DNA of 64,000 bases from Nocardioidaceae bacterium (GCA_025980475.1 JAICXL010000005.1:4636-68635), one strand, 5' to 3'. Numbered from the stretch's first letter, positions 12,886-39,659 are shown. Program-made: numbers and translations. The notes: a model not told the origin generated them from the sequence alone.

Positions 12886-12897
12886 TCTGATCTCCTC

Positions 12898-13197: not shown

Positions 13198-13221
13198 TCC
13201 ACCACGTCCGGACGCATTCGG

Positions 13222-14619
13222 TCAGCGGGGGCGGGCGCGGGTGCGGTGGGCCAGCTCGGAGAGCGCGGCGGGAAACACCTCCGCGGGCGGGGTGACCAGG
13301 CCGGCCCCGACCTGCCCGACACCGGCGACCTTGCCGGCCATACCGGTGTTGATCTGCGGCAGGATCCCGGTGCGGCAGACGCGGGTGACGTCGATGCCCG
13401 TGGCGGTGCCCTGGAAGTCGAGCACCGGGATCGTCCATCGGGGGTTCTCGCCGAGGGTGATCTCGTGCATCCGCCTGGTCGTGGCCAACGCGTCGGGCAC
13501 GCTGCCGCCGACGAAGCGCACGATCGCCGGGGCCGTGGCCATCGCGAAGCCACCGATGCCCGCGGTCTCGGTGATCGCGGAGTCACCGATGTCGGGGTTG
13601 GCGTCGTCGGGACCGTAGTCGCCGAGGTAGAGCCCGTCCGCGACCTGGGCGGGCCCGGTGAACCACTGGTCGCCGGTGCCGGCCAGCTGGATGCCGAAGT
13701 CGGTGCCGTTGCGGGACATCGCGACGACCATCGTGGACCCCTCGATGTCGCGGGCGGCGTCGAGCATCAGCTTGCAGGCAGGCATCGCCAGGTTGAGGAA
13801 GAAGTGGTCGTTGCCGCCGATGAAGCGAAGGGCGTCGGCCACCTTGGCGGGCTCGTGGCCTGACGCCACCATCGCCGGGGCGAGGTCGCGCAGCAGCATC
13901 AGGGTGCCGGCCCGGTTGCGGTTGTGCGCCTCGTCGCCCATCTGCAGCATCTGGGTCAGGATCCCGGTGACGTCGACGGGGCCGGTCGCCCGCACGGCGT
14001 CCCGCAACAGCGGACCGAGCACGGCGGACATCCAGCGCAGCCGCTCGAGGACCTCGGGTGCGTAGGCGCCGTAGCGCAGCACCTTGCCGAGGCCCTCGTT
14101 GAGCGAGCAGAAGGTACGACGGCCGGTGGCCGGGTCCTCCAGCACGTACATCCACATCGACGCGGAGACGACCCCGGCCATCGGCCCGACCGCACGGTGG
14201 TGGTGGCAGGGGTCGAGCGAGACGCCGGACCCCGACTCGAAGAGGACGACCGCAGCCTCCGGGTCGTCGACGACGCCCTCGAGCGCAGCGGCTCCCATCA
14301 GGGCTCCCCGCAGCGGGCCCGACGCGTCGGCCCAGGCGATCGGCGGACCGGCGTGCAGGAAGTCACCAGGGGCAAGACCCAGGAGCTCGCCGGCCGGCGC
14401 GACGTCGACGAGCATCGCCTGCACGTCGAGCACCGCGGCCAGCGCTCGCTCGTTGGCGTCCTTGCGCAGCGGGTCGGCGGCGACGCAGGCGAGGTCGCCC
14501 TCCGTGCCGGGCATCGGCGGCCGCCAGTCCACCCGGACCACCGGGACTGCCTGTGCCTCGACCGCGTCGGCGAGGTGGTCGGTGCCGACGGCGACGACGG
14601 ACGCGGGCGCGCTGGTCAT
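13222..14619 (-). CDS. DUF1116-family protein (YlbE/AllG-like)
   Basis: 465 aa recognised as the YlbE-type family. ATGA overlap with the upstream FdrA-like gene (14616-14619). Confidence 0.75.
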   Translation of the reverse strand: MTSAPASVVAVGTDHLADAVEAQAVPVVRVDWRPPMPGTEGDLACVAADPLRKDANERALAAVLDVQAMLVDVAPAGELLGLAPGDFLHAGPPIAWADASGPLRGALMGAAALEGVVDDPEAAVVLFESGSGVSLDPCHHHRAVGPMAGVVSASMWMYVLEDPATGRRTFCSLNEGLGKVLRYGAYAPEVLERLRWMSAVLGPLLRDAVRATGPVDVTGILTQMLQMGDEAHNRNRAGTLMLLRDLAPAMVASGHEPAKVADALRFIGGNDHFFLNLAMPACKLMLDAARDIEGSTMVVAMSRNGTDFGIQLAGTGDQWFTGPAQVADGLYLGDYGPDDANPDIGDSAITETAGIGGFAMATAPAIVRFVGGSVPDALATTRRMHEITLGENPRWTIPVLDFQGTATGIDVTRVCRTGILPQINTGMAGKVAGVGQVGAGLVTPPAEVFPAALSELAHRTRARPR

Positions 14620-16076
14620 CGGGCTCCTCCAAGGATCTCCAGGGCACGCCGGGTGGCCCCGGCGTTGGACAGGTGCACCTCGGCGCCGGCGTCGGCGAGT
14701 GCCTGCGCCTGACGGTCGAGGCCCTGCGGGTCGAGCTCGGTGCCCACGCAGCTGACCACGACGGCAGGACCCGACCGGCGCGCCCGCTCGATCGCGGGCG
14801 CGAGCCGGGAGGCGGGGTCGGACTCGGCGCCGTGGCCCAGCACCACGTCCATCAGCACCACCCCGGTGCGCGGGTCGCTGGCCACCCGGTCGAGGTGCTC
14901 GAGGCGGAGCGTCGGATCGATCATCGGGTGGGCGCGCCCGGAGGTCAGGGCGTCGTCGCCGAAGTCGACCATCAGGTGGGTATCGGCCAGCAGGTCCGTG
15001 TCGAGGGCGAGGTCGGGGGACAGCGGGATGTTGCTGCGCACCGGGCCGAGGGCCGCCGTGGCGATCAGCATCGCCTCGTCGCAGAGAGTGCCGCCGACGA
15101 AGAGGCCCCGCAGCAGGTCACCGTGCGCCTCGCCGGCGCGCCCCCAGACGGGCCAGCCGGGGAGGTCGCGGCCGAGAGCGCGCAGAGCCTGCTCCGCCGC
15201 CGCGGTCAGGTCAGGTCGTCCCTGACCCAGCAGCGCGAGCTCGACCGGCGTCGCCAGCCGGTCGGCGCAGTCGCGGACGACCTCGGCCACCTCGTCCGCG
15301 GGCGGCTTGGAGACCACCACGACGAGCTCGACGCGGGGGTCGGCGTCGAGCCGGCGCAGCGCGGCCAGCGTGGAGCGTCCGCCGATGTCGGTGGACAGGT
15401 CGCGGCCGCCGACGCCGAGCGCCGTGCCGACGCCCACGCCGGCGTGCTCCAGCAGGCAGGCGAGCTGCTGGCAGCCGGTCCCGGACGCCGCGACGATGCC
15501 GACGGGCCCAGGGGAGCAGACGTTGGCGAAGCCGAGGCCCACCCCGTCCACGACTGCGGTCCCGCAGTCGGGTCCCATCACCAGCAGGTCGCGCTCGGCC
15601 GCCACCGTCTTCAGGGCCAGCTCGTGCTCGACCGGGACGTTGTCGCTGAACACCATCACGTCATGACCGGCGTCGAGGGCATCCATGGCCTCGACCAGCG
15701 CGCTCGGACCGGGCACCGACACCAGGACCGTCCCGCCCGCGACCCGCCGCAGCGCGGCCGCGGTGGTGCGGGGCGGTGCCACGTCGGTCGGTTGCGTCGT
15801 CCGGCGCCCGGTCGCGACGAGGGCTTCGTCGACGGCGGCCAGGGCAGCGGCGAGCCGGTCCGCGGAATCCACCCGGACCGCCACCACGAGGTCGTTCGCG
15901 GTGCACTCGGGCAGCGCGAAGCCCATCTGCGAGAGCAGGTCGAGGTTGAGCGGTGTGGCCATCGCGACCTGTGCCGACTCGACACCCGGGGCCTGCTGCA
16001 CCGAGCGGCTCACCTGGAGCAGCGCGACCGAGTCGGCGTAGGCGCCGGGGCGGACCTCGACGTGGGCGTGGCTCAT
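14616..16076 (-). CDS. fdrA: FdrA-family protein (succinyl-CoA-synthetase-like fold, AllF-like)
   Basis: 486 aa with ..VSVPGPSALVEAMDALDAGHDVMVFSDNVP.. and GIVAASGTG.., typical of FdrA. ATGA overlaps on both sides. Confidence 0.8.
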   Translation of the reverse strand: MSHAHVEVRPGAYADSVALLQVSRSVQQAPGVESAQVAMATPLNLDLLSQMGFALPECTANDLVVAVRVDSADRLAAALAAVDEALVATGRRTTQPTDVAPPRTTAAALRRVAGGTVLVSVPGPSALVEAMDALDAGHDVMVFSDNVPVEHELALKTVAAERDLLVMGPDCGTAVVDGVGLGFANVCSPGPVGIVAASGTGCQQLACLLEHAGVGVGTALGVGGRDLSTDIGGRSTLAALRRLDADPRVELVVVVSKPPADEVAEVVRDCADRLATPVELALLGQGRPDLTAAAEQALRALGRDLPGWPVWGRAGEAHGDLLRGLFVGGTLCDEAMLIATAALGPVRSNIPLSPDLALDTDLLADTHLMVDFGDDALTSGRAHPMIDPTLRLEHLDRVASDPRTGVVLMDVVLGHGAESDPASRLAPAIERARRSGPAVVVSCVGTELDPQGLDRQAQALADAGAEVHLSNAGATRRALEILGGAR

Positions 16077-16861
16077 GCTTCTCCATCCTGGTGGGTCTCC
16101 TCGAGCAGCCGGCGGGCGGCGCCGAGCACGAGACCGGCTCCGGAGGTGTGGCCCACCGCGGCGAGCCGGGCTGCTGCTGCGCCGACGGCGGTTTCGTCGC
16201 CGCCCGCCAGCGCCCGCACGAGGGCAGCGAACTGCGGGATCACCTCGCCGGCAGCCGCGCAGTCGATGAGGGTGGCCGAGAGCAGGGTCGTGCGGCTCCG
16301 GGGATCGGGGAGCGGAGCCGCCGGTCGACCCAGCGCGTGGTTGGTGGCCAGCCAGCCGCAGACGACGTCGTCACCCAGCGGGGTCAGGCCCGACCCGCGG
16401 CCGAGCAGCTCGCCCAGGGGTGCCTCGAGCGCGTCGTCGAGCTCGGCCAGGGCGGTGCTGCCGGCCGCGAGCAGCGGGGCCTGCAGCTCGGCCAGGGAGC
16501 ACCGGCCGACCCGGCGCAACGAGGGCACCGAGACGTCGACCAGGCGGCCGACGAGGACCGTGGTGTCGCCCAGTCGGAGCTGGCCGTCCCCGACCCGGGC
16601 CGTGGTGGCATCGGCAAGCACGCCCAGGTGCGGAAGCGCCGTACGCAGGGCACAGGGGACGGCCGTGGCGCCCGCGGCCACCACGCCGACGCACCAGCCG
16701 TCGAGCTCGAGGTAGACCGCGTGCCGGCCTCGGTGGACGATCCTCGCGACCCGCTCCGGGCCGGCCAGACGGGCCCGCAACCGGGCCGGTGCCGCGGCGG
16801 CGACGACGGCGCGCCCGGGCCTGCCCGGGCTGGTGCACTGCACCGTTGGGGCGGCGATCAT
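16073..16861 (-). CDS. DUF2877-family protein (YlbF/AllH-like)
   Basis: Motifs GRGSGLTPLGDDVVCGWL and GHTSGAGLVLG. Internal ATG 16861 chosen because the track start at 16993 would overlap the PucR gene. TACGGT -10 lies 7 nt upstream (leaderless candidate). Confidence 0.7.
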   Translation of the reverse strand: MIAAPTVQCTSPGRPGRAVVAAAAPARLRARLAGPERVARIVHRGRHAVYLELDGWCVGVVAAGATAVPCALRTALPHLGVLADATTARVGDGQLRLGDTTVLVGRLVDVSVPSLRRVGRCSLAELQAPLLAAGSTALAELDDALEAPLGELLGRGSGLTPLGDDVVCGWLATNHALGRPAAPLPDPRSRTTLLSATLIDCAAAGEVIPQFAALVRALAGGDETAVGAAAARLAAVGHTSGAGLVLGAARRLLEETHQDGEA

Positions 16862-16914
16862 GCCTGCGACCGTATCCCCGGCGGTAGCGTTTGCCGATGT
16901 GAGGACTTGCCAGC

Positions 16915-18207
16915 GTGACCACTGAGCCCCTGCAACACTTGCCAACCGCCAGCGCCGAGGCCCTGGCGCGCATCGATGCCCTCCACTCCGCATTGACCCA
17001 GATCGTGCTCGAGGGCGGGAACCTCAGCCAGATCGCCGCCGAGGCGGCTCGGCTGCTCGACGTCGGGGTGCTGGTCACCTCCACCGACGGGCGCGAGCGG
17101 GCGGCGGCCCTGGACGACTCCGCCCGCGTGGCGCTCGACGACGAGCAGCTGTTCGAGCCGACCGGCCGCTTCCGGGTCGAGCGCGTCGGTGGCGGTGTGC
17201 TATCGGTGGGCACGGGCGAGCTGCGGATGGTGCGGGTCGCGGCGGGGGGCACCGACCTGGCCCGGTTCCTCTGCCTGCGCCGCACCGGCACGATCCCCCT
17301 CGAGGACGTGCACGCCCTCGAACGGGCCGCTGCGGTCGCGGCGCTGCTGATCACCCATGAGGAGGCGATGACCGCGGTCGAGAACAAGTACCGCGGCGAC
17401 TTCCTGCGCGATGTCTTCCTCGGTCGCGCCGGCGACGCGGCCTACGTCGCCGAGCACGCCGAGACCTTCGGCTGGGACCTCGGCCGGCCCACCGTCGTGG
17501 TGGCTGCCGAGATCGACCCCCAGACCGGTGAGGAGGAGCCGGCCTCGAGCCAGGTCCGGCGCCGGTGGCAGGAGCGGTTCGCCTATGCATGGCAGCGGGT
17601 CACCAATGCGCAGGACAAGGCGATGCCCAGCGTGGACTTCTCCTCCGAGGTGGTCACGCTGCCCGGAGTGCCCGAGGGTGCGGAGCCGACCGCGGACGCG
17701 ATGGCGATCGCCGGCAACGTCGTGGATTCCCTGGTCAGCGGGGTCGCCGGGGACAAGGGGGGAGGCAGGCGGCCGTTCTCGGTCGGCGTGAGCCGGGTCG
17801 CACGCACGATCGACGAGCTGCCGCAGGCCTACGCGCAGGCCCGCCGGGCGGTCGAGGTCGGCCGGCGCATCCACGGCGGCGGCTCGACGACGTGGTTCGA
17901 CCAGCTGGGCATCCACCGGCTGATCGCGATGGTCCCCGACGAGCGCGAGCTCGCGACCTTCGCCCGGGACGTCCTCGGCGAGCTGGCCGTCGACAGCCAC
18001 GAGGCACGCGACCTCCGCGAGACCCTGCAGGTGCTGCTCGACACCAACTTCAACGTCGCGGAGGCGGCGCGGCTGCAGTTCTTCCACTACAACACGATGC
18101 GCTACCGGGTCAGCAAGCTGGAGCGGATCCTCGGGCCGCTCGGCCACGACCCGCACCTGCGGCTCGACGTCGCGGTGGCGCTGAAGGTGCTCGAGATCCT
18201 GTCCTGA
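16915..18207 (+). CDS. PucR-family transcriptional regulator
   Basis: C-terminal PucR HTH (NVAEAARLQFFHYNTMRYRVSKLERILG). Divergent from the FdrA-type operon. Confidence 0.9.
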   Translation: MTTEPLQHLPTASAEALARIDALHSALTQIVLEGGNLSQIAAEAARLLDVGVLVTSTDGRERAAALDDSARVALDDEQLFEPTGRFRVERVGGGVLSVGTGELRMVRVAAGGTDLARFLCLRRTGTIPLEDVHALERAAAVAALLITHEEAMTAVENKYRGDFLRDVFLGRAGDAAYVAEHAETFGWDLGRPTVVVAAEIDPQTGEEEPASSQVRRRWQERFAYAWQRVTNAQDKAMPSVDFSSEVVTLPGVPEGAEPTADAMAIAGNVVDSLVSGVAGDKGGGRRPFSVGVSRVARTIDELPQAYAQARRAVEVGRRIHGGGSTTWFDQLGIHRLIAMVPDERELATFARDVLGELAVDSHEARDLRETLQVLLDTNFNVAEAARLQFFHYNTMRYRVSKLERILGPLGHDPHLRLDVAVALKVLEILS

Positions 18208-18352
18208 CCCCGGCCGCCGCCGGTGCCGCCGCCGCGCCCACAACGGTTGCCAGCGGGGCCGGCGTTCCTTCGGCATCTCTCGCCGTCGATGGTGTGTGAT
18301 GGGCCTCACTACGTTGAGGCATCTCGGTCGCACTAGTGGCAGGAGGATCCAG

Positions 18353-19795
18353 ATGTCCATGTTCACCTGGCAAGAGGTGGACCCGGCGCCCGGGGAGGCC
18401 GTCGCCCCGGGGCAGCGGCTGAGCTGGGGTCGCACCGTCGGACTCGGTGCCCAGCACGTGGTCGCGATGTTCGGGGCCACGTTCGTCTTCCCGCTGGTGA
18501 TGGGGCTCGACCCCAACCTGGCGATCTTCTTCTCCGGCGTCTGCACGGTCCTCTTCCTGCTGGTCGTGGCCAACAGGGTGCCCAGCTACCTCGGCACCAG
18601 CGCCTCCTTCGTGGCCAGCGTCGCGGCGATCCGCGCTCAGGGCGGCAGCTCGGCAGACGTCACCGGCGCCATCCTCGTGGCCGGCGTCGCGCTGGCCCTG
18701 GTCGGCGTGGTGGTGCACTTCGCCGGCTCGGGCGTGATCCACAAGGTGCTGCCGCCGGCGGTCACCGGCGCCGTGGTCATGCTGATCGGCTTCAACCTGG
18801 CGCCGGTCGTCGCCGGCACATACTGGCCCCAGGACCAGTGGATCGCGCTGCTCACCGCCACCTTCATGGTCTGCGCGGCCATCCTGCTGCCCGGCTTCTG
18901 GGCCCGGATCGCCGTGTTCCTCGCGCTGATCTTCGGCTACCTCCTCTCGTTCCTCGCCGACACCCTCTTCGGCACGATCCACTCGATGCTGCCGGGCCAG
19001 AACCTGATGATGCCCGACATCGTCAACGGCAAGGCCACGATGGTGCCCTGCCCGAAGGAGGGCGGCATCAACTGCGTGGCGTCCGCCTTCGACCACGACC
19101 GGATCTGGGCCTGGTCGGGGGTCGGCAAGGCGGACTGGATCGGCTTCCCCCACGGCACCCTGGGCGACGGCGTCTCGGTCGTGCACGGCCCGAGCCTGTC
19201 GCTGACCTTCATCCTGCTGGTGCTGCCGGGCGTGATCGCCCTCATCGCCGAGAACACCGGCCACGTCAAGGCGGTTGCCGAGATGACCGGCGACAACCTC
19301 GACCCCTACATGGGTCGGGCGCTGGCCGCCGACGGCGTCGCCACCGCCCTGGCGAGCACCTTCGGCGGCTCACCGACCACGACCTACGCCGAGAACATCG
19401 GGGTGATGGCCTCGACCAAGGTCTACTCCACGGCCGCCTACTACGTCGCGGCGGCGGTCGCCATCCTGCTCGGGCTCTGTCCGAAGTTCGGGGCGATCGT
19501 CAACGCCACCCCTGGTGGGGTCCTCGGCGGCATCACCGTGGTGCTCTACGGCATGATCGGCCTGGTCGGCGCCAAGATCTGGGTCGAGAACGGGGTGGAC
19601 TTCGGCAACCCCGTCAACATGGTCGGCCTCGCCGCGGGCATCATCGCGGGCATCGGCGGGGTCACCATCACCTTCACCGACAACTTCTCCCTCGGCGGGA
19701 TCGCGCTCGGCACGATCCTGGTCATCGTCTACTTCCACCTGGTCAAGGGCAAGAAGGAAGAGCTGGGCGCGAAGGAAGTGACCGGAGCACTGTGA
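18353..19795 (+). CDS. NCS2 (uracil/xanthine-type) nucleobase:cation symporter
   Basis: LGAQHVVAMFGATFVFPL and later ENIGVM motifs, with multiple TM segments. ATG 18353 follows AGGAGG. Confidence 0.85.
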   Translation: MSMFTWQEVDPAPGEAVAPGQRLSWGRTVGLGAQHVVAMFGATFVFPLVMGLDPNLAIFFSGVCTVLFLLVVANRVPSYLGTSASFVASVAAIRAQGGSSADVTGAILVAGVALALVGVVVHFAGSGVIHKVLPPAVTGAVVMLIGFNLAPVVAGTYWPQDQWIALLTATFMVCAAILLPGFWARIAVFLALIFGYLLSFLADTLFGTIHSMLPGQNLMMPDIVNGKATMVPCPKEGGINCVASAFDHDRIWAWSGVGKADWIGFPHGTLGDGVSVVHGPSLSLTFILLVLPGVIALIAENTGHVKAVAEMTGDNLDPYMGRALAADGVATALASTFGGSPTTTYAENIGVMASTKVYSTAAYYVAAAVAILLGLCPKFGAIVNATPGGVLGGITVVLYGMIGLVGAKIWVENGVDFGNPVNMVGLAAGIIAGIGGVTITFTDNFSLGGIALGTILVIVYFHLVKGKKEELGAKEVTGAL

Positions 19796-20667: not shown

Positions 20668-21149
20668 CCGAGGAGCTGCACGAGATCCGGCTGCACGTCA
20701 ACGGGACGTCGTACGCCCTGACCGTTCCCGGCCGCCGGCTGCTCTCCGACGCGCTGCGCCACGACCTCGGGCTCACCGGCACCCACGTCGGCTGCGAGCA
20801 CGGCGTCTGTGGCGCCTGCACGATCCTCGTCGACGGTGCCCCGATGCGCTCGTGCCTGATGTTCGCGGTCTCGGCCGTCGACGCCGAGCTCACCACCGTC
20901 GAGGGGCTGGCTGACGCCGACGGCTCGCTCGGGCCGGTGCAGCAGGCGTTCCTCGAGTGCCACGGACTGCAGTGCGGCTTCTGCACGCCCGGCTTCCTGA
21001 CCACGATCACCGCCGGGCTGCGCGACAACCCCCGGCCCACGCACGCGGAGGCCCGCGAGATGGTCGCCGGCAACCTGTGCCGCTGCACTGGCTACCAGAA
21101 CATCGTCAAGGCTGTGGAGCGGGCCGCGGAGCTCGGGGCCGGCCGATGA
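20664..21149 (+). CDS. Mo-hydroxylase [2Fe-2S] small subunit
   Basis: GCEHGVCGACT, CGFCTPG and CRCTGY cysteine motifs. ATGA overlap upstream. Confidence 0.9.
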   Translation: MTEELHEIRLHVNGTSYALTVPGRRLLSDALRHDLGLTGTHVGCEHGVCGACTILVDGAPMRSCLMFAVSAVDAELTTVEGLADADGSLGPVQQAFLECHGLQCGFCTPGFLTTITAGLRDNPRPTHAEAREMVAGNLCRCTGYQNIVKAVERAAELGAGR

Positions 21150-23584
21150 CCACCAAGCTCGTCGGCGCCAAGGTGCAACGGGTCGAGGACCAGCGCTTCC
21201 TGCGCGGGCAGGGCAGGTACGTCGATGACATCGACGTCCACGCCGGCACCCCGACGCTGCACGCGGCGGTGCTGCGCTCGCCGCACGCGCACGCCCGGGT
21301 CCGGGACATCGACGTGGAGGCAGTGCTCGACGTCGAAGGCGTGCACGCGGTGTGGACCTACCAGGACCTGGCCGACCTGTCTGTGAACCTCGCCGACCCG
21401 CTGCCGCTGCTGATCCCGCATCCTGCGCTGACCCATGGGCGCACCCAGTACGCCCTGGCGAAGGACGAGGTCAACTACGTCGGGGAGGCGGTGGCGTTCG
21501 TGGTCGCCGACGACCGCTACCTCGCCGAGGACGCCGTCGACCGGATCCGGGTCGACTACGAGCCGCTGCCGCCGGTGGTCGGGATCGACGCTGCCCGCGC
21601 CGCCGAGCACCTCGTCCACGAGGACGTGCCGGGCAACGTCGGGGCGCGCCTGGAGCAGGAGGTCGGGGACGCGCGCGCGGCCATCGCCGACGCACCGCAC
21701 CGGCTGTCGCTCGACCTCACCGTCGAGCGCAGCGCCTCGACGCCGCTCGAGGGCCGCGGGGTGGTCGCCCGGTGGGACCCCGACATCGGCCGGCTGCAGG
21801 TCTGGACCTCGACCCAGACCTCCACCGGGGTCCGGGCGGCGGTCGCGGTCAAGCTCGGCCTCGACCTGGGCCAGGTCGACGTGATCACCCCCGACGTCGG
21901 TGGTGGCTTCGGCGTGAAGATCAACCACCCGTGGCCCGAGGAGCTGCTGGTGCCCGCGGCGGCCCGCGCGCTCGGCCGGACGGTGAAGTTCACCGAGGAC
22001 CGCCGCGAGCACTTCATCTCCGCCGCCCACGAGCGCGGCCAGGTCCACCACGTCGAGGTCGGCTTCGACGACGACGGGAGGCTGCTCGGCCTCGACGTCA
22101 CCTTCTGGCACGACCACGGTGCGTACACGCCGTACGGCCTGATCGTCCCGATCATCACCTCCACCCAGCTGCTCGGGCCCTACAAGCCACAGAGCTACCG
22201 GGTGGTCTTCGAGAGCCTCTACACGAACACGGTGATGGTCACCCCCTACCGCGGTGCCGGCCGGCCGCAGGGCTGCTTCGTGATGGAGCGGACCATGGAC
22301 GCGATCGCGGCCCACCTGCACAAGGACCGCACCGAGGTGCGCGCGACCAACTTCATCCAGCCCGACGAATTCCCCTACGACCAGGGGCTGGTCTTCCAGG
22401 ACGGCCGGGAGCTGGAGTACGACTCCGGTGACTACCCGAGGTCGCTGGAGATGATCAAGAGGCTGGTCGGCTGGGACGAGTTCGAGGCCTTCCGCGCCGA
22501 GATGGCCGCCGAGGGCCGGCGGGTCGGCATCGGCCTGGCCTGCTACGTCGAGGGCACCGGCGTCGGCCCCTACGAGGGGGCGCACGTGCACATCGAGACG
22601 ACCGGCAAGGTCAAGGTCGCCACCGGGCTGACCACGCAGGGGCAGGGGCACGCGACGGTCTTCGCACAGCTCGTGGCCGACGAGCTCGGGGTGCCGATGA
22701 CCGACGTCGAGGTGGTCACCGGCGACACGCGTCGGATGCCCTACGCGGTGGGGACGTTCGCCTCCCGGTCGGCGGTGATGAGTGGGTCCGCCGTACACCT
22801 GGCAGCGAAGCGGGCGAAGGAGAAGGTGCTCAGGATCGCCTCCGACGCGCTGGAGGCCGACGTCGACGACCTCGAGATCGTCGAGGGAGTGGTCAGCGTC
22901 AAGGGCTCGCCCGGGGCGTCCATCGACCTCGGCACGGTCGCGGTGCTGTCGAACCCGCTGCGCTACGCCTTCGACGAGAAGTCGCGCGCCGCGACGCAGT
23001 TCACCGTCGGTGACCCCGGCAAGCCGCCGGTGGCCGAGGACGACGAGCCAGGGCTCGAGGGCAAGGACTTCTACTCCCCGGAGCGGTCCACCTTCGCCTC
23101 CGGCATGCACGCCGTCATCGTCGAGACCGACCCGGACACCGCCGAGGTGAGGATCCTGAAGTACGCCGTGGTCCACGACTGCGGCAACCTGATCAACCCG
23201 ATGATCGTCGAGGGACAGATCCACGGCGGCATCGCCCAGGGCGTCGGGGGTGCGCTCTACGAACGGATGGCGTACGACGAGCACGGCCAGCTGCTCAATG
23301 CCTCGTTCATGGACTTCCTGATGCCCTACGTCACCGAGGTCCCCGACACGATCGAGATCGACCACCTCGAGACGCCCTCGCCGTTGAACCCGATCGGCGT
23401 CAAAGGGGCGGGGGAGGCCGGGGTGATCCCGTCCGCGGCGGTGTTCGCCGCGGCGATCGAGGACGCCGAGGCGCACGACCACCCGGGCCTGGCGATCACG
23501 GGCATGCCGATCTCGCCGTCGGAGCTGTTCGCCCTTCGACAGGCTCAGGAACCGCTGCTGAAGCAGCACGAGGAGGACGCATGA
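21146..23584 (+). CDS. Mo-hydroxylase molybdopterin-binding large subunit, form-II CoxL-like
   Basis: 812 aa with GGGFGVK Moco motif. The active-site loop reads PYRGAGRP (22247-22264), i.e. the AYRGAGR form-II signature rather than the AYxCSFR of true CO dehydrogenases. ATGA overlap upstream. Confidence 0.85.
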   Translation: MTTKLVGAKVQRVEDQRFLRGQGRYVDDIDVHAGTPTLHAAVLRSPHAHARVRDIDVEAVLDVEGVHAVWTYQDLADLSVNLADPLPLLIPHPALTHGRTQYALAKDEVNYVGEAVAFVVADDRYLAEDAVDRIRVDYEPLPPVVGIDAARAAEHLVHEDVPGNVGARLEQEVGDARAAIADAPHRLSLDLTVERSASTPLEGRGVVARWDPDIGRLQVWTSTQTSTGVRAAVAVKLGLDLGQVDVITPDVGGGFGVKINHPWPEELLVPAAARALGRTVKFTEDRREHFISAAHERGQVHHVEVGFDDDGRLLGLDVTFWHDHGAYTPYGLIVPIITSTQLLGPYKPQSYRVVFESLYTNTVMVTPYRGAGRPQGCFVMERTMDAIAAHLHKDRTEVRATNFIQPDEFPYDQGLVFQDGRELEYDSGDYPRSLEMIKRLVGWDEFEAFRAEMAAEGRRVGIGLACYVEGTGVGPYEGAHVHIETTGKVKVATGLTTQGQGHATVFAQLVADELGVPMTDVEVVTGDTRRMPYAVGTFASRSAVMSGSAVHLAAKRAKEKVLRIASDALEADVDDLEIVEGVVSVKGSPGASIDLGTVAVLSNPLRYAFDEKSRAATQFTVGDPGKPPVAEDDEPGLEGKDFYSPERSTFASGMHAVIVETDPDTAEVRILKYAVVHDCGNLINPMIVEGQIHGGIAQGVGGALYERMAYDEHGQLLNASFMDFLMPYVTEVPDTIEIDHLETPSPLNPIGVKGAGEAGVIPSAAVFAAAIEDAEAHDHPGLAITGMPISPSELFALRQAQEPLLKQHEEDA

Positions 23585-24228
23585 AGATCGCCGGTGAGGC
23601 GACCCTGGTCGCGCCCGTCGCCCAGGTCTGGGAGGCGCTGCTGGACCCCCGGGTCCTGGTGGCCACGATCCCCGGCTGCGAGCGGCTCGTCGCGACCGGC
23701 GAGAACGCCTACGACATGACCGTGACCGCCGGCGTCGCGGCGATCCGTGGGACCTACGCCGGCACCTGCGAGCTCAGCGACCTGAAGGAGCACGAGTCGC
23801 TGGTGCTGCGCGCGAGGGGCGCCGGTGCGCCGGGGACGATCGACGCCACGGTCCAGGTGCGCTTCGACGCCAACGAGGACGGCACCACCACGCTGTTCTA
23901 CGACGCGGACGCCATCGTCGGCGGGATGGTCGGCGGCGTGGGCCAGCGGATGCTCACGTCGGTGAGCAGGCGGATGGCGACGGAGTTCTTCAGCAACGTC
24001 GAGCGGGCGATCAGCGGGGTGGCGGCCCACGAGGAACCGGTTGCGCCGTCGACCGCTGCCGCCCCGACCGCGCCGGGTGTCTACACCGCGCCCCCACGGC
24101 CCGCTGGTGGGCTCGACCAGGACAGCTTCCTGAAGGGGGTGGCCCTGGGTGCCGGCCTGGTCCTGGCCGGGGCGGTCGTGGGCGGCGTCTTCGGGCGGAG
24201 GGCGCTGACGTGTCCGACCTCTCGGTGA
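23581..24228 (+). CDS. CoxG/SRPBCC-family protein with C-terminal TM anchor
   Basis: MKIAGEATLVAPVAQVWEALLDPRVL.. is a CoxG-like start. ATGA overlap with the large subunit. Confidence 0.75.
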   Translation: MKIAGEATLVAPVAQVWEALLDPRVLVATIPGCERLVATGENAYDMTVTAGVAAIRGTYAGTCELSDLKEHESLVLRARGAGAPGTIDATVQVRFDANEDGTTTLFYDADAIVGGMVGGVGQRMLTSVSRRMATEFFSNVERAISGVAAHEEPVAPSTAAAPTAPGVYTAPPRPAGGLDQDSFLKGVALGAGLVLAGAVVGGVFGRRALTCPTSR

Positions 24229-25601
24229 TCTCCACGGCCCGGGAGATGGCTGCGGCGGTCCGCGCCCGGGAGATCTCCGCCCGGGAGCTGCTCGACCTGC
24301 ACCTGGCCCGGATCGCGGAACGCAACCCGGAGCTCAACGCGATCGTCTCGATCGACGAGGAGAGGGCCCGGGCCGCCGCGGCGCGGGCCGACGAGCGCAC
24401 CGCGCTCGGCCTCGAGACCGGCCCGTTGCACGGCCTGCCCTTCGCCTTCAAGGACACCCACGACGTCGCCGGTTGGCGAACGACCTACGGCTCGCCCCTC
24501 TTCGCCGAGCACGTGCCCGACGCCGACGACCTCGTCGTGGAGCGCGTCCGCGGGGCGGGCGTGGTCATCCTCGGCCGGACCAACGTCCCCGAGTTCGCGG
24601 CGGGGTCGCACACCTTCAACCGGGTCTTCGGCACCACGCTCAACCCGGTCGACCCCAGCCGGTCGGCCGGCGGCTCGAGTGGCGGGGCGGCGTGTGCCCT
24701 GGCGTCGGGGATGCTGCCCCTGGCGGACGGCTCCGACATGGGCGGCTCGCTGCGCAACCCGGCGTCTTTCTGCGGCGTGGTCGGGATGCGGCCGTCGCTG
24801 GGCCGGGTGCCGGGCTGGCCGACGAGCAACCTCTGGGAGGCGACCGCCACCGCAGGGCCGATGGCGCGCAACGTCGCCGACCTGGCGCTGCTGCTCTCGG
24901 TGATGGCCGGACCGGACCCGCGGGTGCCGACCGCCCTCGCAGCGCCCGGCAGCGACTTCGCCCCGCCGGTCGCCGGGTCGCTGGGCGGACTCCGGGTCGC
25001 CCACTCGATCGACCTCGGCGGTGCCTTCGAGGTCGACGGCGCCGTGGCCGCCGTCGTCGAGGCGTCGGCCTCGGTCTTCGCGGCGGCGGGGGCCGACGTA
25101 CGTCCCGACCGTCCCGACCTCGCCGAGGCCGAGGACTGCTTCCGGACCCTGCGCGCCTGGCTGTTCCAGGCCTCCTTCGGCGATCTGCTGCGGGAGCATC
25201 CCGACGGCTTCAAGGAGTCGCTGGCCGACAACATCCGGGCCGGCGCGGCGCTCACCGGTGCCGATGTGGCGCGCGCCTACGCACAGCGGACCGCCCTGGC
25301 CGAGCGGATGCGGGCGTTCTTCACGAGCTACGACGTCCTGGTGCTGCCGGTCTCGCAGGTGCCGCCGTTCCCGGCCGACCAGGAGTTCCCCCGGTCGATC
25401 AACGGAAAGCCGATGAGCACCTACCTGGACTGGATGCGGTCCGCCTACTTCATCACCGTCACCGGGTGCCCGGCGATCTCCGTGCCGGGCCGCACCACTC
25501 CCGACGGCCTCCCGGTGGGCATCCAGGTCGTCGCGCCGCACGGCGCCGAGCGACGGCTGCTGGAGGTCGCCGCCGCGTTCGAGGAGGCGACCGCGGGCTG
25601 A
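24210..25601 (+). CDS. amidase-signature (AS) family amidase
   Basis: FAFKD (Lys), GGSSGGAA and GSDMGGSLR motifs of the Ser-cisSer-Lys triad. 19-nt overlap with the CoxG-like gene. Confidence 0.9.
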   Translation: MSDLSVISTAREMAAAVRAREISARELLDLHLARIAERNPELNAIVSIDEERARAAAARADERTALGLETGPLHGLPFAFKDTHDVAGWRTTYGSPLFAEHVPDADDLVVERVRGAGVVILGRTNVPEFAAGSHTFNRVFGTTLNPVDPSRSAGGSSGGAACALASGMLPLADGSDMGGSLRNPASFCGVVGMRPSLGRVPGWPTSNLWEATATAGPMARNVADLALLLSVMAGPDPRVPTALAAPGSDFAPPVAGSLGGLRVAHSIDLGGAFEVDGAVAAVVEASASVFAAAGADVRPDRPDLAEAEDCFRTLRAWLFQASFGDLLREHPDGFKESLADNIRAGAALTGADVARAYAQRTALAERMRAFFTSYDVLVLPVSQVPPFPADQEFPRSINGKPMSTYLDWMRSAYFITVTGCPAISVPGRTTPDGLPVGIQVVAPHGAERRLLEVAAAFEEATAG

Positions 25602-28002: not shown

Positions 28003-30135
28003 ATGGAAGGCCAGCCCAGGACCGAGCGCCGCATCCGGATCGGCATCGACACCGGGGGCACCTTCACCGACGTGGTCGCCTTCGACGAGGACAGCGGCGA
28101 GCTGGTCAGCACCAAGACGCCCTCGACGCCGGCGAACCCGGCCGACGGCTTCATGGCCGGCATCGACAAGGTCCTCGGGCTCGTGGGCGCTGCGCCGGGC
28201 GCGGTCGCGGCGGTCAGCCACGGCACCACCGTCGCCACCAACCAGCTGCTCGAGGGCAAGGTGGAGCGGCTCGGCTTCGTCACCAACACCGGCTACGAGG
28301 CGATGCTCGAGATCGCCCGGCAGTCGGTGCCGGACGGCTACGGCAACTCCTACTTCTGGGTCAAGCCGGACCGGATCGTCCCGCGCGACCTGGTCAGGGG
28401 TGTCGAGGGCCGGCTGGACCACACCGGTGCCGAGGTCCGGCCGTTCGACGAGGCCGGCGCGCGGGGGGTGGCCCGCTGGTTCCGCGACCACGGCATCGAC
28501 ACCTTGGGCGTGTGCTTCCTGCACTCCTACGCCAACCCCGAGCACGAGGAGCGGATGCGCGCCGTGCTCCTCGAGGAGCATCCCGACGCGGTCGTCTCCC
28601 TGAGCAGTGCGGTGCTGCGGGAGTACCGCGAGTACGAGCGCGCGATGACCACCCTCGTCGACGCCGCGGTGAAGCCACGGCTGTCGCGCTACGTCGCCGA
28701 CATCACGGCCCGCTTGGCGGGCTACGCAGCCACCGCAGAGGAGTCTGCGGGGGGCGGTGCCCGTCGGGCGGTGCCGTTCTACGTGATGAAGTCCAACGGC
28801 GGCGTGCTCTCCGCCGAGCAGGTCGTGCACCAGCCGATCAGCACCGTCCTCTCGGGCCCGGCCGCCGGGGCGCTGGGGGCCGCGACGGTCGCGAAGGTGG
28901 CCGGCTTCGACCGGGTGCTCACCAGCGACGGGGGAGGCACCTCGACCGACGTCGCCCTGGTCGTCGACGGTGAGCCGACCCTGACCACGGAGGGGAGCGT
29001 CGGCGCCTTCCCCAGCAAGATCCCGATGATCGACGTGGTCACCGTGGGTGCCGGCGGCGGCTCGATCGCGTGGCTCTCGCCCGAGGGCACCCTCAAGGTC
29101 GGACCCCGGTCGGCCGGTGCCGATCCGGGGCCGCTGTGCTACGGCAAGGGCGGCACCGAGGTGACGATCACGGACGCCCACGCCTCCCTCGGCCGGATCC
29201 CGCCGCACCTGCTCGGCGGTGAGATCCCGCTCGACGTGGCCGCGGCCCGCAAGGGTGTCGAGGCGCTTGCCGCGCAGCTCGGCCTGGGCACCGTGGCCTG
29301 CGCGACCGGCATCCTCGAGGTATCCGCGTGGAACCAGGCCAACGCGTTGCGCCAGGTGACCGTCAAGCGTGGCCTCGACGTCCGCGACTTCACGCTGGTG
29401 ACCTTCGGGGGCTCCGGCTCGCTGCTGCTGTGCCGGCTGATGGACATCCTCGGCATCCCGACCGTGCTCGTCCCGCCGGACCCCGGGAACGTCTCGGCGT
29501 TCGGGCTGCTCACCGTGGACGTCAGGAACGACTACGTGCAGACCCACGTCGCGCTCGCGGACGCGCTCGACCCCGCGACCGTCGGGCAGGTGTACGACGA
29601 CCTCACCCGTGACGCCGCCGACGCACTGGTCCGTGAGGGCTTCCCACCCGATGAGCACGTGCTCGTCCGCACCGCCGACGTGCGCTACTTCGGTCAGGCG
29701 TTCGAGGTACGGGTCGCCGTACCCGACGGTCCGGTCGACAGCGCCCTCCTCGCCGAGGTGGCCGGGCGGTTCCACGCCGGGCACAGGGCGCTCTACGGCT
29801 ACGACTTCGCCGAGGACCCCGCCCAGCAGGTCGAGTGGGTCAACCTGCGGGTCACCGGGATCGGCCCGATCCGCCGGCCCGAGATCCGGCAGCACGCCGT
29901 CCAGCCGACCGCGCCGACCACCGCCCCCCGCAGCGTCCGGTCGGTCTGGTTCGACGCCGAGGGTGGCTACGACGAGACCCCGGTCCACTGGCGGCCCGAC
30001 CTGGCCCCGGGTGCGGTCGTCGCCGGGCCGGCGGTCATCGAGGAGTTCGGTTCGACGGTGCCGCTGCACCCGGGGTTCGTCGCCCGCGTCGACGAGTTCC
30101 TCAACATCGTGGTGACCAGGGAGGCCGGCCGATGA
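28003..30135 (+). CDS. hyuA: hydantoinase/oxoprolinase family protein, A (HyuA-like) subunit
   Basis: 710 aa with RIGIDTGGTFTDVV at the N-terminus, typical of hydantoinase A / 5-oxoprolinase / acetone-carboxylase beta. Confidence 0.85.
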   Translation: MEGQPRTERRIRIGIDTGGTFTDVVAFDEDSGELVSTKTPSTPANPADGFMAGIDKVLGLVGAAPGAVAAVSHGTTVATNQLLEGKVERLGFVTNTGYEAMLEIARQSVPDGYGNSYFWVKPDRIVPRDLVRGVEGRLDHTGAEVRPFDEAGARGVARWFRDHGIDTLGVCFLHSYANPEHEERMRAVLLEEHPDAVVSLSSAVLREYREYERAMTTLVDAAVKPRLSRYVADITARLAGYAATAEESAGGGARRAVPFYVMKSNGGVLSAEQVVHQPISTVLSGPAAGALGAATVAKVAGFDRVLTSDGGGTSTDVALVVDGEPTLTTEGSVGAFPSKIPMIDVVTVGAGGGSIAWLSPEGTLKVGPRSAGADPGPLCYGKGGTEVTITDAHASLGRIPPHLLGGEIPLDVAAARKGVEALAAQLGLGTVACATGILEVSAWNQANALRQVTVKRGLDVRDFTLVTFGGSGSLLLCRLMDILGIPTVLVPPDPGNVSAFGLLTVDVRNDYVQTHVALADALDPATVGQVYDDLTRDAADALVREGFPPDEHVLVRTADVRYFGQAFEVRVAVPDGPVDSALLAEVAGRFHAGHRALYGYDFAEDPAQQVEWVNLRVTGIGPIRRPEIRQHAVQPTAPTTAPRSVRSVWFDAEGGYDETPVHWRPDLAPGAVVAGPAVIEEFGSTVPLHPGFVARVDEFLNIVVTREAGR

Positions 30136-32057
30136 CCGACAGCCGCAGGGCGCCGACGCAGTTCCCCTTCGGCATGCTGACCGCCGACGCGGGTGCGGGC
30201 GCCGACCCGGTGCTGGTCGAGATCGTGCAGGGCTCGCTGGCCAGCGTGGAGCTGGAGGTCGAGACCGCGATCGCGCGCACCAGCCGCAGCCCGATGATCC
30301 GCGACGCCCACGACTTCCGCGCCGGCATCCACGACCGGCTGCTGCGCAAGCTCACCGGCCGCTCCTACTCGGCGCTCGTGCACCCCGTCGCGCGCGACTT
30401 CCCGATCGAGCAGATGCGTGCGGGCGACGTCTTCTTCCACAACGACGTCTACCGCTCCGAAGGCGGCATCGGCCACCTGCCCGACCTGTGCGTGACGGTG
30501 CCGGTGTTCGGCGGCACCTCCGGGCCACGCCGCGTCGTCGCGTTCGTGCAGGCCTTCGGGCACCACGACGACATCGGCGGGGCGGTCCCCGGCTCGATGC
30601 CCTCGCACGCCACCACGGTCTTCGAGGAGGGCCTGATGGTGCCCCCGATCCGGCTCTGGGACGCCGGCGTGCCGAACCGCAGCGCGCTGGCGATCATGAC
30701 CCGCAACAGCCGGATGCCGGAGTCGCTGGCCGCCGACCTCGACGCCGAGTGCTCGGCGTGCCTGATGGGAGCGCGGCGACTGGGCGAGCTCTTCGACCGC
30801 TACGGCGTGGAGACGGTCGAGTCGTGCTTCGACGCCATCATCGACCGCACCACCCAGACCTACCGCCGCGAGATCCTCTCCAGGATCCCGGTCGGGCAGT
30901 GGACCTGGGAGGACTACGCCGAGCACGACGGCGTCGACGAGCCCAGGCTGCACGCCCAGCGGATCACGCTGACCCGGACGGCGGCCGACGACCCCGGCGG
31001 CGAGCGGCTGGTCCTCGACTTCGCGGGCACCTCGCCACAGGCGAAGGGCCCGATCAACCACTGCGGCGACTACAGCGACGGCGTCTTCCTGAAGAAGTGG
31101 CTCGCCCCGATCCTGCGCAACCTTGCCGACACGCCTGCCCGGATGGCCGAGCTCGACGTCAACGAGGGCGTCGTTCCGCTCATCGAGATGCGCTTCCCGC
31201 CGCCGGGCACGCTGCTCACCCCGGTCTTCCCCGCCCCGACCAACGCGCGCACCTTCGTGATCCTGCGGCTGCTCGGCGTGCTGGCCGGTGTCGTGGCCAA
31301 GGCGGTGGACGGCCGGATGCCCGCCGACCAGGAGACGATCCGCTACACCGGGGTCTACGGCGAGGACGCCGACGGCCGGCCCTACCTGATGCGCGAGGTG
31401 CTCGGCGGCGGGTCGGGCGGTCGCTACTACGCCGACGGGGAGGACACCATCCACGTCGTTCCCGACTCCCGCAACCTGCCCACCGAGTTCACCGAGGCAC
31501 GGTTCCCCTTCCGCGTCGAGAGCCTGTCGTTGGCCGTGGACTCCGGCGGCGCCGGGCAGTTCCGCGGTGGCCTCGGCTACGAGAAGCAGATCCGGATGCT
31601 GAAGGACGCCCACTTCATGTCGATCGCCGACCGGTCGATCCTCTCCTGCTGGGGAGTTCGCGGCGGCAGGGCGGGCCAGCCGTTCAGCGTCACCATCGAC
31701 CCCGGCGGTCCGGACGAGCGCGAGGTCGACGCCCTGGCCGACGCCGAGCCGGTGCGGGCCGGCGAGGTGATCCGGATCCGCACCACCGGCGGCGGCGGCT
31801 GGGGCGACCCGCTCGAGCGGGACCCGGCCCTGGTCGTGCGCGACGTGGTCTGGCACAAGGTCTCAGCGGCGGCGGCGTTCGCGGACTACGGCGTCGTACT
31901 CACCGGGGCGGCTGCCGACGACAACCTCGGGTACGACGAGGCGGCCACCTCTCGCGAGCGTGCCTCGCGTGCGCCTGCCGAGCGCTTCTTCGACCGGGGC
32001 CCCGGCTATGCACGGCTCAGCGGCGGCGAAACCGCTGCCGCCGTCGACGCGCGCTGA
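30132..32057 (+). CDS. hyuB: hydantoinase B/oxoprolinase family protein (HyuB-like)
   Basis: ATGA overlap with hyuA. DPVLVEIVQGSL..IARTSRSPMIRDAHDF is typical of HyuB. Confidence 0.85.
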   Translation: MTDSRRAPTQFPFGMLTADAGAGADPVLVEIVQGSLASVELEVETAIARTSRSPMIRDAHDFRAGIHDRLLRKLTGRSYSALVHPVARDFPIEQMRAGDVFFHNDVYRSEGGIGHLPDLCVTVPVFGGTSGPRRVVAFVQAFGHHDDIGGAVPGSMPSHATTVFEEGLMVPPIRLWDAGVPNRSALAIMTRNSRMPESLAADLDAECSACLMGARRLGELFDRYGVETVESCFDAIIDRTTQTYRREILSRIPVGQWTWEDYAEHDGVDEPRLHAQRITLTRTAADDPGGERLVLDFAGTSPQAKGPINHCGDYSDGVFLKKWLAPILRNLADTPARMAELDVNEGVVPLIEMRFPPPGTLLTPVFPAPTNARTFVILRLLGVLAGVVAKAVDGRMPADQETIRYTGVYGEDADGRPYLMREVLGGGSGGRYYADGEDTIHVVPDSRNLPTEFTEARFPFRVESLSLAVDSGGAGQFRGGLGYEKQIRMLKDAHFMSIADRSILSCWGVRGGRAGQPFSVTIDPGGPDEREVDALADAEPVRAGEVIRIRTTGGGGWGDPLERDPALVVRDVVWHKVSAAAAFADYGVVLTGAAADDNLGYDEAATSRERASRAPAERFFDRGPGYARLSGGETAAAVDAR

Positions 32058-37495: not shown

Positions 37496-37585
37496 AGGCG
37501 ATTGGCACAAGTTGCCGTGGCCCGGGCCGGCCGTTGGCTGTTCCTGCCCGTGCCGGGCCGTCGACGCCCCCCTAGATTCGACGCC

Positions 37586-38527
37586 ATGCGGATCGTGATG
37601 GCGCTCGGCGGCAACGCCATGACGTCACCCGACGGCCGCGCCCGCGTCAGCGACCAGCAGCAGGCGATCACGGGCGCCTGTGTGCACATCGCCGACCTGG
37701 TCGGGCGAGGCCACGACGTGGTGATCACCCACGGCAACGGTCCGCAGGTCGGCAACCTGCTGCTGAAGAACGAGCTCGCAGCCGCCGAGGTGCCGCCCGT
37801 CCCGCTGGACTGGTGCGGTGCGTCGACCCAGGCGACGATCGGAATCACGGTGATGGACGCGCTCGACGTCGCCCTCGCCCGGCTCGGCATCGACAAGCCC
37901 ACCGCGACGCTGGTCTCCCGCACCCTGGTGGACGCGGACGACCCCGGTTTCGCGCGGCCAACCAAGCCGATCGGGCGGCACCTCTCGCGGGACGACGCCC
38001 AGGTGCTGATCGACCACGGCCAGCACTTCGTCGAGGTTCCCGGCAAGGGCTGGCGTCGCGTGGTCGCCTCCCCGGAGCCGGTCGAGTGCCTGGACGCGCC
38101 GGCCGCCGACACGCTGCTCGGCGCCGGCTACGTGGTGGTCTGCTCCGGCGGCGGCGGGATCCCGACGGTCAGGCGATCCGACGGTTCGCTCGCCGGGGTC
38201 GAGGCCGTGATCGACAAGGACCTCACGGCCTCGCTGGTCGCCAGGCACATCAACGCCGACGTGCTGGTGATCGCCACCGATGTCGACCATGCGGTCACCG
38301 ACTACGGCACCGACCACGAGCAGCCGATCGGCGAGGTCACGGCGGCGGAGATGCGCCGGATCGCCGAGCAGCAGCACTTCGCCGCCGGCTCGATGGGCCC
38401 CAAGATCGAGGCGGTGACCCGCTTCGCCGAGCACGGCGGCACCGGGGTGATCACCTCGCTGGGCAACATCTCGGACGCGGTCGGTGGCCGCGCCGGCACC
38501 CGCGTCGTACCCGCTCCCCGAACCTGA
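37586..38527 (+). CDS. arcC: carbamate kinase
   Basis: [12 protein letters not shown].., [15 protein letters not shown], and GGGGIP with a C-terminal GSMGPKIEA block; 313 aa. Confidence 0.9.
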
Positions 38528-38552
38528 ACGCGCAGAAACCGAAAGGAACCCC

Positions 38553-39659
38553 ATGCCCTCCGCCATCGAAGTACGCAAGGTGCCGCTGCACTCCGTCTCC
38601 GACGCCTCCGAGCTCGGCAGGCTGATCGACGACGGCGTCTTCGAGGCCGATCGGGTGATCGCGGTGATCGGCAAGACCGAGGGCAACGGCGGCGTCAACG
38701 ACTACACGCGGATCATCGCCGACCGGGCCTTCCGCGAGATGCTGGTGTCGAAGGGCGCGGACGCCGAACGCGTCAAGGAGGTCCCGATCGTCTGGTCCGG
38801 CGGCACCGACGGGGTGATCAGCCCGCACGCGACGATCTTCGCGACCGTCGACCCGGATCCTGCACACGGGCCGACCGACGAGCCGCGCCTGACCGTCGGC
38901 TTCGCGATGAGCGAGAAGCTGCTCCCCGAGGACATCGGTCGGCAGGCGATGGTCAGCAAGGTCGCCGACGCGGTCAAGGTCGCGATGGAACGCGCGGGCA
39001 TCACCGACCCGGCCGAGGTGCACTACGTGCAGACCAAGACGCCGCTGCTCACGATCGACACGATCCAGGACGCGAAGAGCCGTGGCCACGACGTCTTCAC
39101 CGAGGACACCCTGGCCTCGATGGACGTCTCCAACGGCGGGACGGCACTGGGCATCGCGGTGGCTCTCGGGGAGATCGAGATGCCGCGCGACGAGGACGTG
39201 CTGCGTGACCGCTCGCTCTACTCCTCGGTGGCCTCGTGCTCCTCGGGGGTGGAGCTGGACCGGGCCCAGGTCGTGGTGGTGGGCAACGCCCCCGGGGTCG
39301 GCGGCCGGTACCGTATCGGGCACTCGGTGATGAAGGACGCCCTTGACCAGGACGGCGTCTGGGAGGCGATCCGGTCCGCCGGCCTCGACCTGCCCGAGCG
39401 GCCGCGCACCGCGGACCTCGACGGCCGGCTGGTCAACGTGTTCCTCAAGTGCGAGGCGTCCCAGGACGGCCAGGTGCGTGGGCGTCGCAACGCGATGCTC
39501 GACGACTCCGACGTGCACTGGCACCGGCAGATCAAGGCCTGTGTCGGCGGGGTGGCCGCGGCGGTCACCGGTGACCCCGCGGTGTTCGTGTCGGTGTCGG
39601 CCGCCCACCAGGGCCCGGACGGCGGCGGGCCGGTCGCCGCGATCGTGGACCTGGGCTGA
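38553..39659 (+). CDS. ring-opening amidohydrolase of the AtzD/TrzD/barbiturase family (barbiturase or cyanuric acid hydrolase)
   Basis: 368 aa. [34 protein letters not shown] and a C-terminal [15 protein letters not shown] all match my recollection of AtzD (GKTEGNGCVNDYTR .. AEHQGPAGGGPFAVI). RBS AAAGGAA precedes ATG 38553. Confidence 0.85.

Follow-up and report, generated by a model that had tools for sequence, protein, structure and literature searches.

Knowledge of the oxidative pyrimidine pathway dates from the 1950s, and its last step is taught as a hydrolysis that releases urea. Ureidomalonate (N-malonylurea) is one methylene longer than oxalurate (N-oxalylurea). In Escherichia coli, the second of these ureides is split by the three-subunit transcarbamylase AllF-AllG-AllH, which interconverts oxalurate plus phosphate with carbamoyl phosphate plus oxamate and works together with the carbamate kinase AllK (Kim and Kim, 2024; PMC11326118). 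This article concerns a related trio of genes at positions 13,222–16,861 of a 64,000-nucleotide stretch of DNA from Nocardioidaceae bacterium (GCA_025980475.1 JAICXL010000005.1:4636-68635; 72.8% G+C), which is referred to in full as the window. We propose, with a probability of about 0.6, that the trio encodes a carbamoyltransferase of a separate clade (clade B, below), situated in an oxidative, uracil-type pyrimidine island under the control of a PucR-family regulator, where it would phosphorolyze ureidomalonate to carbamoyl phosphate and malonamate.

The E. coli genes resemble those of the window in being operonic and paired with a catabolic carbamate kinase, and in their predicted chemistry, in which an N-acylurea is phosphorolyzed to give carbamoyl phosphate. 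The two systems differ in gene order (H-F-G in the window, F-G-H-K in E. coli), in regulator (PucR as opposed to AllS/AllR), in the absence of allECD genes from the window, and in the predicted substrate, which is ureidomalonate here and oxalurate in E. coli, with the AllG proteins falling into separate clades. They differ also in the placing of the carbamate kinase gene, which a preliminary description of the window had reported as displaced by about 21 kb to a position next to a barbiturase homologue; the distance from the trio is 20.6 kb, and the neighbor is a true barbiturase. A same-operon carbamate kinase, linkage to allantoin genes or AllD, and grouping with E. coli AllG, which are among the marks of a strict E. 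coli-type allFGHK module, are all lacking here.

Three further systems invite comparison. The oxidative pathway of Rhodococcus and Nocardia, as cited in PMC3758960, consists of uracil dehydrogenase, barbiturase, and ureidomalonase (Soong et al., 2001, 2002), and shares with the window a true barbiturase, a candidate uracil-oxidizing molybdenum enzyme, and a nucleobase permease, here found in one island; its third step is a hydrolysis to urea and malonate, whereas the partner genes in the window fit a phosphorolysis instead. Catabolic ornithine transcarbamylase and the carbamate kinase of the arginine deiminase pathway are alike in principle, in that phosphate splits a ureido group and the kinase makes ATP, but that transcarbamylase is of an unrelated fold and family and is a single-gene trimer rather than a three-subunit enzyme. 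Lastly, allFGHK genes of nitrifiers that lie beside biuret/triuret hydrolase genes (PMC12625717) also combine AllFGH and carbamate kinase outside an allantoin context, although their partner genes are different, no barbiturase was reported, and they were read there as serving oxalurate degradation.

Membership of the three genes in the AllF-AllG-AllH (oxamate carbamoyltransferase) family, taken in a broad sense, is virtually certain from their sequence matches. The preliminary description, which was made from the sequence alone, had recognized an FdrA/DUF1116/DUF2877 trio, and Pfam identifies all three families (Table 1); the gene order implied by its wording was wrong, the operon running AllH-AllF-AllG on the minus strand. 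AllG is 46% identical to AllG of E. coli K-12 and matches Protein Data Bank (PDB) entry 3CLQ at E = 1.1e-108. AllF is 37% identical to E. coli FdrA over 488 aa, matches PDB entry 3DMY at E = 1.3e-62, and scores 377.8 bits against the NCBIfam FdrA subfamily model NF004760, under the model's cut-off of 433. AllH, the start of which is set by a GTG/ATG-ATC conserved in aligned relatives, is 37% identical to E. coli AllH across the C-terminal 105 aa and has in common with it the invariant motifs GxGxGLTPxGDD and GHTSG. A confident AlphaFold model of AllH (pLDDT 89.9) has a beta domain at the N-terminus and a helical one at the C-terminus; comparison with solved structures returned no clear relative (Foldseek, best E 0.1; VIA-align, best Z 4.1).

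The genes are tightly coupled. Both junctions carry the ATGA overlap already noticed in the preliminary description, at 16,076–16,073 between AllH and AllF and at 14,619–14,616 between AllF and AllG, and a 4-nt overlap of start and stop codons recurs among relatives, at 69 of 80 first junctions and 85 of 100 second ones. A piece of protein is also placed differently between the subunits. AllF is without the last ~70 aa of E. coli FdrA and AllG has ~50 extra N-terminal residues, such that a segment of ~45 aa that forms the C-terminal end of FdrA in E. coli is found at the N-terminus of AllG here (its first ~40 aa). The two segments align in register, with the pattern V..G...FA.....Q...V..W.P..G (E 1e-4 in a single comparison), and in a multiple alignment the C-terminal extension is carried by allantoin-type AllF only. 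Among 1.84 billion representatives, 663 clusters were recovered at E ≤ 1e-30, and these include AllF-AllG fusions of ~1000 aa; one 781-aa representative (P0011) joins an AllG domain to an NAD(P)-binding domain of the NmrA-like type. The E. coli AllF, AllG, and AllH proteins co-purify (PMC11326118). Taken together, the fusions, the shifted segment, and the co-purification in E. coli support a physical complex of the trio's products, and thus the earlier suggestion that the tight coupling serves one, which the conserved overlaps also favor.

That the trio belongs to a pyrimidine-breakdown island is very likely. At the level of the order, 107 of 401 genomes have AllG and 87 have a barbiturase-family gene, with 84 having both; the two genes share a contig in 77 of these 84, at distances of 10.6–43 kb (median 24 kb), and in five of the other seven they are split at contig ends. 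At the level of the class, 88 of 401 sampled genomes contain both genes and 290 contain neither; a barbiturase-family gene without AllG occurs in 11, and the reverse in 12. Six of the 11 have low barbiturase scores typical of other, non-barbiturase subgroups. Five unpublished genomes (G753, G435, G423, G689, and G406) are included in the class tallies; the loci examined all come from other genomes.

The usual layout, which recurs at 20 loci within the order and at five of the six that were retrieved from the class's other families, has AllH, AllF, and AllG reading away from a divergent PucR gene, which is followed by permease, molybdenum hydroxylase, CoxG, an amidase or CN_hydrolase, hydantoinase A/B, in some cases a CoA-transferase, and finally carbamate kinase and barbiturase. 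A search over genome contigs with a diverse AllG alignment, its output confined to the 80 nearest relatives, returned only members of clade B, and among 55 full-length loci from named genomes (including Nocardioides, Pseudonocardia, Jatrophihabitans, Streptomyces, and Streptosporangiaceae) AllF was present within 10 kb in 54, the hydroxylase in 50, the permease in 47, and PucR in 42. The most compact case, in genome G541, occupies ~13 kb, with CoxL, CoxS, CoxM, barbiturase, and permease on one side and AllH, AllF, AllG, and carbamate kinase reading divergently on the other. Its hydroxylase is only 30% identical to that of the window; therefore the same functional set has been assembled with a different hydroxylase lineage. 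Of 38 metagenome loci spanning 10 kb or more, seven have AllF-AllG and a barbiturase-family gene as immediate neighbors, and in three of the seven (L206, L166, and L199) the latter carries the barbiturase signature.

Two variations on this arrangement were encountered. In L140 and L175 (also L147 and L153), AllF-AllG adjoins an amidohydrolase with the signature of cyanuric acid hydrolases (T..R, VSGG) or an intermediate one, and the L175 locus also has a carbamate kinase; ureides derived from triazines, carboxybiuret or biuret for example, may also be substrates of the AllFGH family. Where the island amidase is missing, a CN_hydrolase of the nitrilase superfamily can follow CoxG (L030:3479-4396; L048:16120-17022), which looks like non-orthologous replacement of a single amide-hydrolysis step.

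Phylogeny sets the island enzymes apart from those of allantoin metabolism. In a maximum-likelihood tree of 47 AllG proteins, each type of gene context corresponds to one split in 100% of bootstrap trees, with supports of 100/99 for clade A, 99/96 for clade B, and 100/100 for each of clades C and D. The window AllG falls in clade B, of which G541 is the deepest branch, and E. coli AllG in clade A with allB/allC-linked copies; B also stays apart from A in a wider FastTree analysis of 81 representatives. The preliminary description had called for such a phylogeny combined with genomic context, and the outcome ties clade B to barbiturase. Within the order, type A genes occur with allB, allC, and allK and encode AllG proteins 58–61% identical to that of E. 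coli, while type B has the island arrangement of the window. Type C consists of GntR and carbamate kinase genes divergent from AllH-AllF-AllG and an NCS1 (cytosine/allantoin-type) permease, with no ring-opening enzyme nearby (L006, L008, L009, L017, L018, and L020–L023; e.g., L021:4907-12346). The very divergent type D, seen in ~9 Mb genomes of the order (L013–L016; e.g., L013:3426-11813), places adjacent AllF and carbamate kinase genes ahead of a radical SAM gene, which is followed by an AIR-synthase-like gene and AllG-AllH; this context is unlike the described uses. Since paralogues coexist in different contexts, A with B in G334 and B with C in G348, G351, and G258, their distribution argues for different substrates. 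Among the AllG residues that are nearly fixed in 106 B sequences and differ in the other three clades are Gln311 (Arg in those clades), Asp162 (Asn), and Ala68 (Pro). A second AllG-like copy in G026 (L019:9660-10940) stands on a branch of length ~3, and AllF, AllH, and carbamate kinase were not detected within 10 kb of it.

In the genome as a whole, AllF, AllG, AllH, and carbamate kinase are each present as one copy. In the assembly (2.76 Mb in 114 contigs, 92.8% complete), neither AllD, the oxalurate maker (best Ldh_2 match 19 bits), nor AllA/ureidoglycolate lyase was found, and no known source of oxalurate was found in the genome. There are no allantoin genes within the window, as the preliminary description had stated; matches to E. 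coli AllB, AllC, and AllE lie on other contigs, with an allantoinase and an AllE-like gene on C87 and an AllC-like gene on C79, and C112 carries genes for an OHCU decarboxylase, DUF6986, malate synthase, and IclR. Because the allantoin genes sit beside malate synthase, the purine/allantoin genes of this genome point to a glyoxylate route. A trio placed with a canonical allantoin cluster elsewhere in the same genome, which the preliminary description had named as the finding that would overturn its view, was sought, and the single copy in the window was the only one recovered. Neither this genome nor the island-bearing genomes G108, G126, and G171 of the same genus yielded a urease alpha, which was found in only 10 of 141 genomes of the family. 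Kim and Kim similarly point to urease-negative enterics as bearers of the E. coli enzyme (PMC11326118).

These observations can be accommodated in a single route. The permease would bring in uracil, the molybdenum hydroxylase would oxidize it to barbiturate, and barbiturase would open the ring to yield ureidomalonate. AllH-AllF-AllG would then convert ureidomalonate and phosphate into carbamoyl phosphate and malonamate, whereupon carbamate kinase would use carbamoyl phosphate and ADP to form ATP, CO2, and NH3, the amidase would release malonate and NH3 from the remaining amide, and the CoA-transferase would activate malonate. The operon would be expressed as a leaderless transcript from a PucR-dependent promoter, with coupled translation giving a complex of fixed ratio. 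Gene context is the basis on which we infer what the trio cleaves and in which direction, as well as what the amidase and CoA-transferase do. Ureidomalonate phosphorolysis is favored because it is the most economical way to give every conserved gene a single task. Malonamate leaves one further amide to be cut, which fits the retention of an amide-hydrolysis gene through non-orthologous replacement, and a urease-independent route fits the rarity of urease in the family. The earlier suggestion that the substrate may differ from oxalurate is strengthened by synteny, co-occurrence, and the separate clade, and the evidence points to ureidomalonate, a compound it did not name.

Three other explanations deserve consideration. 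The trio might cleave a different ureide of the island, either the product of the ATP-dependent hydantoinase A/B pair or a further oxidized pyrimidine. Hydantoinase A/B is conserved in most islands with no explained role, the family pairs with other ring-opening enzymes, as the cyanuric-acid-hydrolase signature on L140 and L175 indicates, and AllFGH occurs in at least two further types of context. We nevertheless regard this explanation as unlikely, given that the minimal clusters of G541, L206, and L199 hold barbiturase and the trio with no hydantoinase, and that ureidomalonate is the nearest structural analogue of the known substrate. Quite improbable, in our estimation, is an ordinary oxamate carbamoyltransferase that acts on oxalurate derived from purines or allantoin and is merely located in a pyrimidine island. 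The resemblance of AllG to its E. coli counterpart, its status as the sole copy in the genome, and the allantoinase, AllE-like, and AllC-like genes would all suit such an enzyme, but searches of the genome recovered neither AllD nor AllA, the allantoin genes on other contigs lead toward glyoxylate, the allantoin-linked AllG is of another clade that coexists with the island type in G334, and the linkage to barbiturase holds class-wide.

The SucD-like CoA-binding and CoA-ligase domains of AllF recall the old FdrA annotation and could suggest an acyl-CoA-synthetase-like enzyme, acting for example on malonate, in place of a carbamoyltransferase. This is very improbable: the E. coli homologue, once purified, proved to be a transcarbamylase (PMC11326118), the position of the SucD phosphohistidine is not histidine in AllF (in a weak MAFFT alignment of SucD and AllF), carbamate kinase is a conserved island gene that lies directly 3' of AllG in G541, and the island has a separate CoA-transferase.

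Several considerations weigh against ureidomalonate phosphorolysis. A hydrolytic ureidomalonase of Rhodococcus erythropolis (EC 3.5.1.95) that yields urea and malonate is on record (Soong et al., 2001, as cited in PMC3758960), and the amidase of the island could be such an enzyme, which would leave the trio without ureidomalonate. The conserved hydantoinase A/B pair has no job in the proposed route, which itself rests on gene context, the activity of the clade-B enzyme being predicted. Barbiturase and the trio are not adjacent in the family but 10–43 kb apart, and in two genomes, G285 and G334, the trio is kept with no barbiturase-family match; that the G285 trio is a decaying remnant was considered and rejected, the evidence for it being insufficient. 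The co-occurrence counts ignore kinship, overstate the number of independent events, and are to be read as a pattern across families, and at the completeness of this assembly the absences are provisional.

On balance, we lean slightly toward regarding the clade-B trio as a malonamate carbamoyltransferase (ureidomalonate phosphorylase), an activity that has no EC number, which would replace ureidomalonase and render the route ATP-yielding and independent of urease. More generally, the AllFGH family may consist of N-acylurea phosphorylases paired with varied ring-opening amidohydrolases, including barbiturase and, on uncultured contigs, cyanuric-acid-hydrolase-like enzymes. No literature linking AllFGH to barbiturate was found in a search that covered few subscription journals; for the oxidative pyrimidine pathway, barbiturase was the only gene assignment found in the literature, and searches found no ureidomalonase sequence for comparison. 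If the proposal is correct, a quarter of the sampled actinobacterial genomes carry an unrecognized, energy-conserving, and urease-independent means of using pyrimidines for nitrogen and carbon, the three-subunit transcarbamylase described in 2024 gains a second class of substrate, and the automatic labels "oxamate carbamoyltransferase" and "cyanuric acid amidohydrolase" are misleading for these islands.

Features of the window are collected in Table 1.

Table 1. Positions of the trio, its upstream elements, and the island genes, counted from the first nucleotide of the window.
Feature	Coordinates	Strand	Basis
allG-like gene, DUF1116, 465 aa	13222..14619	-	PF06545 at 5e-97, over full profile (Pfam)
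allF/fdrA-like gene, SucD-like, 486 aa	14616..16076	-	PF00549 and PF02629 (Pfam)
allH-like gene, DUF2877, 262 aa, operon gene 1	16073..16861	-	PF11392 at 3.8e-21 (Pfam)
-10-like hexamer TACGGT	16869..16874	-	Sequence; followed by 7 nt, then AllH ATG at 16861
Intergenic box CTGGCAAGTCCTCACATCGGC, conserved in relatives; candidate site for a regulator, or promoter element on the PucR side	16893..16913	-	Aligned relatives
PucR-family regulator, divergent	16915..18207	+	PF13556 and PF17853
Nucleobase (xanthine/uracil family) permease	18296..19795	+	PF00860 at 5.4e-63
Molybdenum hydroxylase large subunit, candidate uracil dehydrogenase	20957..23584	+	PF02738, PF20256, PF01315
CoxG-like protein	23581..24228	+	PF06240; syntenic in relatives
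Amidase-signature amidase, candidate malonamidase or ureidomalonase	24210..25601	+	PF01425 at 1e-107
Hydantoinase/oxoprolinase A subunit	28003..30135	+	PF01968, PF05378, PF19278; conserved in island
Hydantoinase B subunit, longest open reading frame	29835..32057	+	PF02538 at 8e-135, matched from residue 124
Carbamate kinase	37502..38527	+	PF00696; TIGR00746 at 4.3e-102; 40% identity to E. coli AllK
Barbiturase	38484..39659	+	PF09663 at 4.8e-144; PDB 5HWE at 9e-197
Family III CoA-transferase, candidate for malonate activation	40275..41552	-	NCBIfam CaiB/Frc-type matches, all under cut-offs

Several of these genes call for comment. The barbiturase contains HWHRQIK and VSVS, in which the H..K and S-V-S positions of the Asn/His/Lys/Val/Ser signature were checked; a His/Lys and Ser-Val-Ser signature separates barbiturases from cyanuric acid hydrolases (PMC3758960). 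For the amidase, NCBIfam and PDB searches gave no specific assignment that would distinguish malonamidase from ureidomalonase. The true start of hydantoinase B is probably near 30,130, and the closest named NCBIfam relatives of hydantoinase A/B are caprolactamase subunits, matched far under cut-off. The CoA-transferase gene, which adjoins barbiturase or carbamate kinase in several relatives too, encodes a protein for which conversion of malonate to malonyl-CoA would fit.

Upstream of the trio, a TA(G/C)(C/G)GT box stands 6–8 nt before the conserved AllH start in 16 aligned relatives, including Pseudonocardia, and no Shine-Dalgarno sequence lies between hexamer and start either here or in the aligned relatives. 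Because the spacing of this TANNNT box is conserved in the 16 relatives, the operon transcript is probably leaderless, in keeping with the preliminary description; scanning 12,800–18,400 for generic sigma-70 promoters and terminators returned nothing, a result that is uninformative at 73% G+C. The gap of 53 bp between PucR and the trio that was reported there holds for a GTG start at 16,915, but alignment with relatives also allows PucR to begin at a TTG at 16,939, which may be the true start and would widen the gap to 77 bp. The intergenic box at 16,893–16,913 is conserved as TTGGCACAACCTCACATCGGC across Nocardioides and Pseudonocardia. A second box conserved in the same two genera, the partly palindromic TTATCAACACTTG at 16,928–16,944, is likewise a candidate regulator site and overlaps the annotated PucR start in the window.

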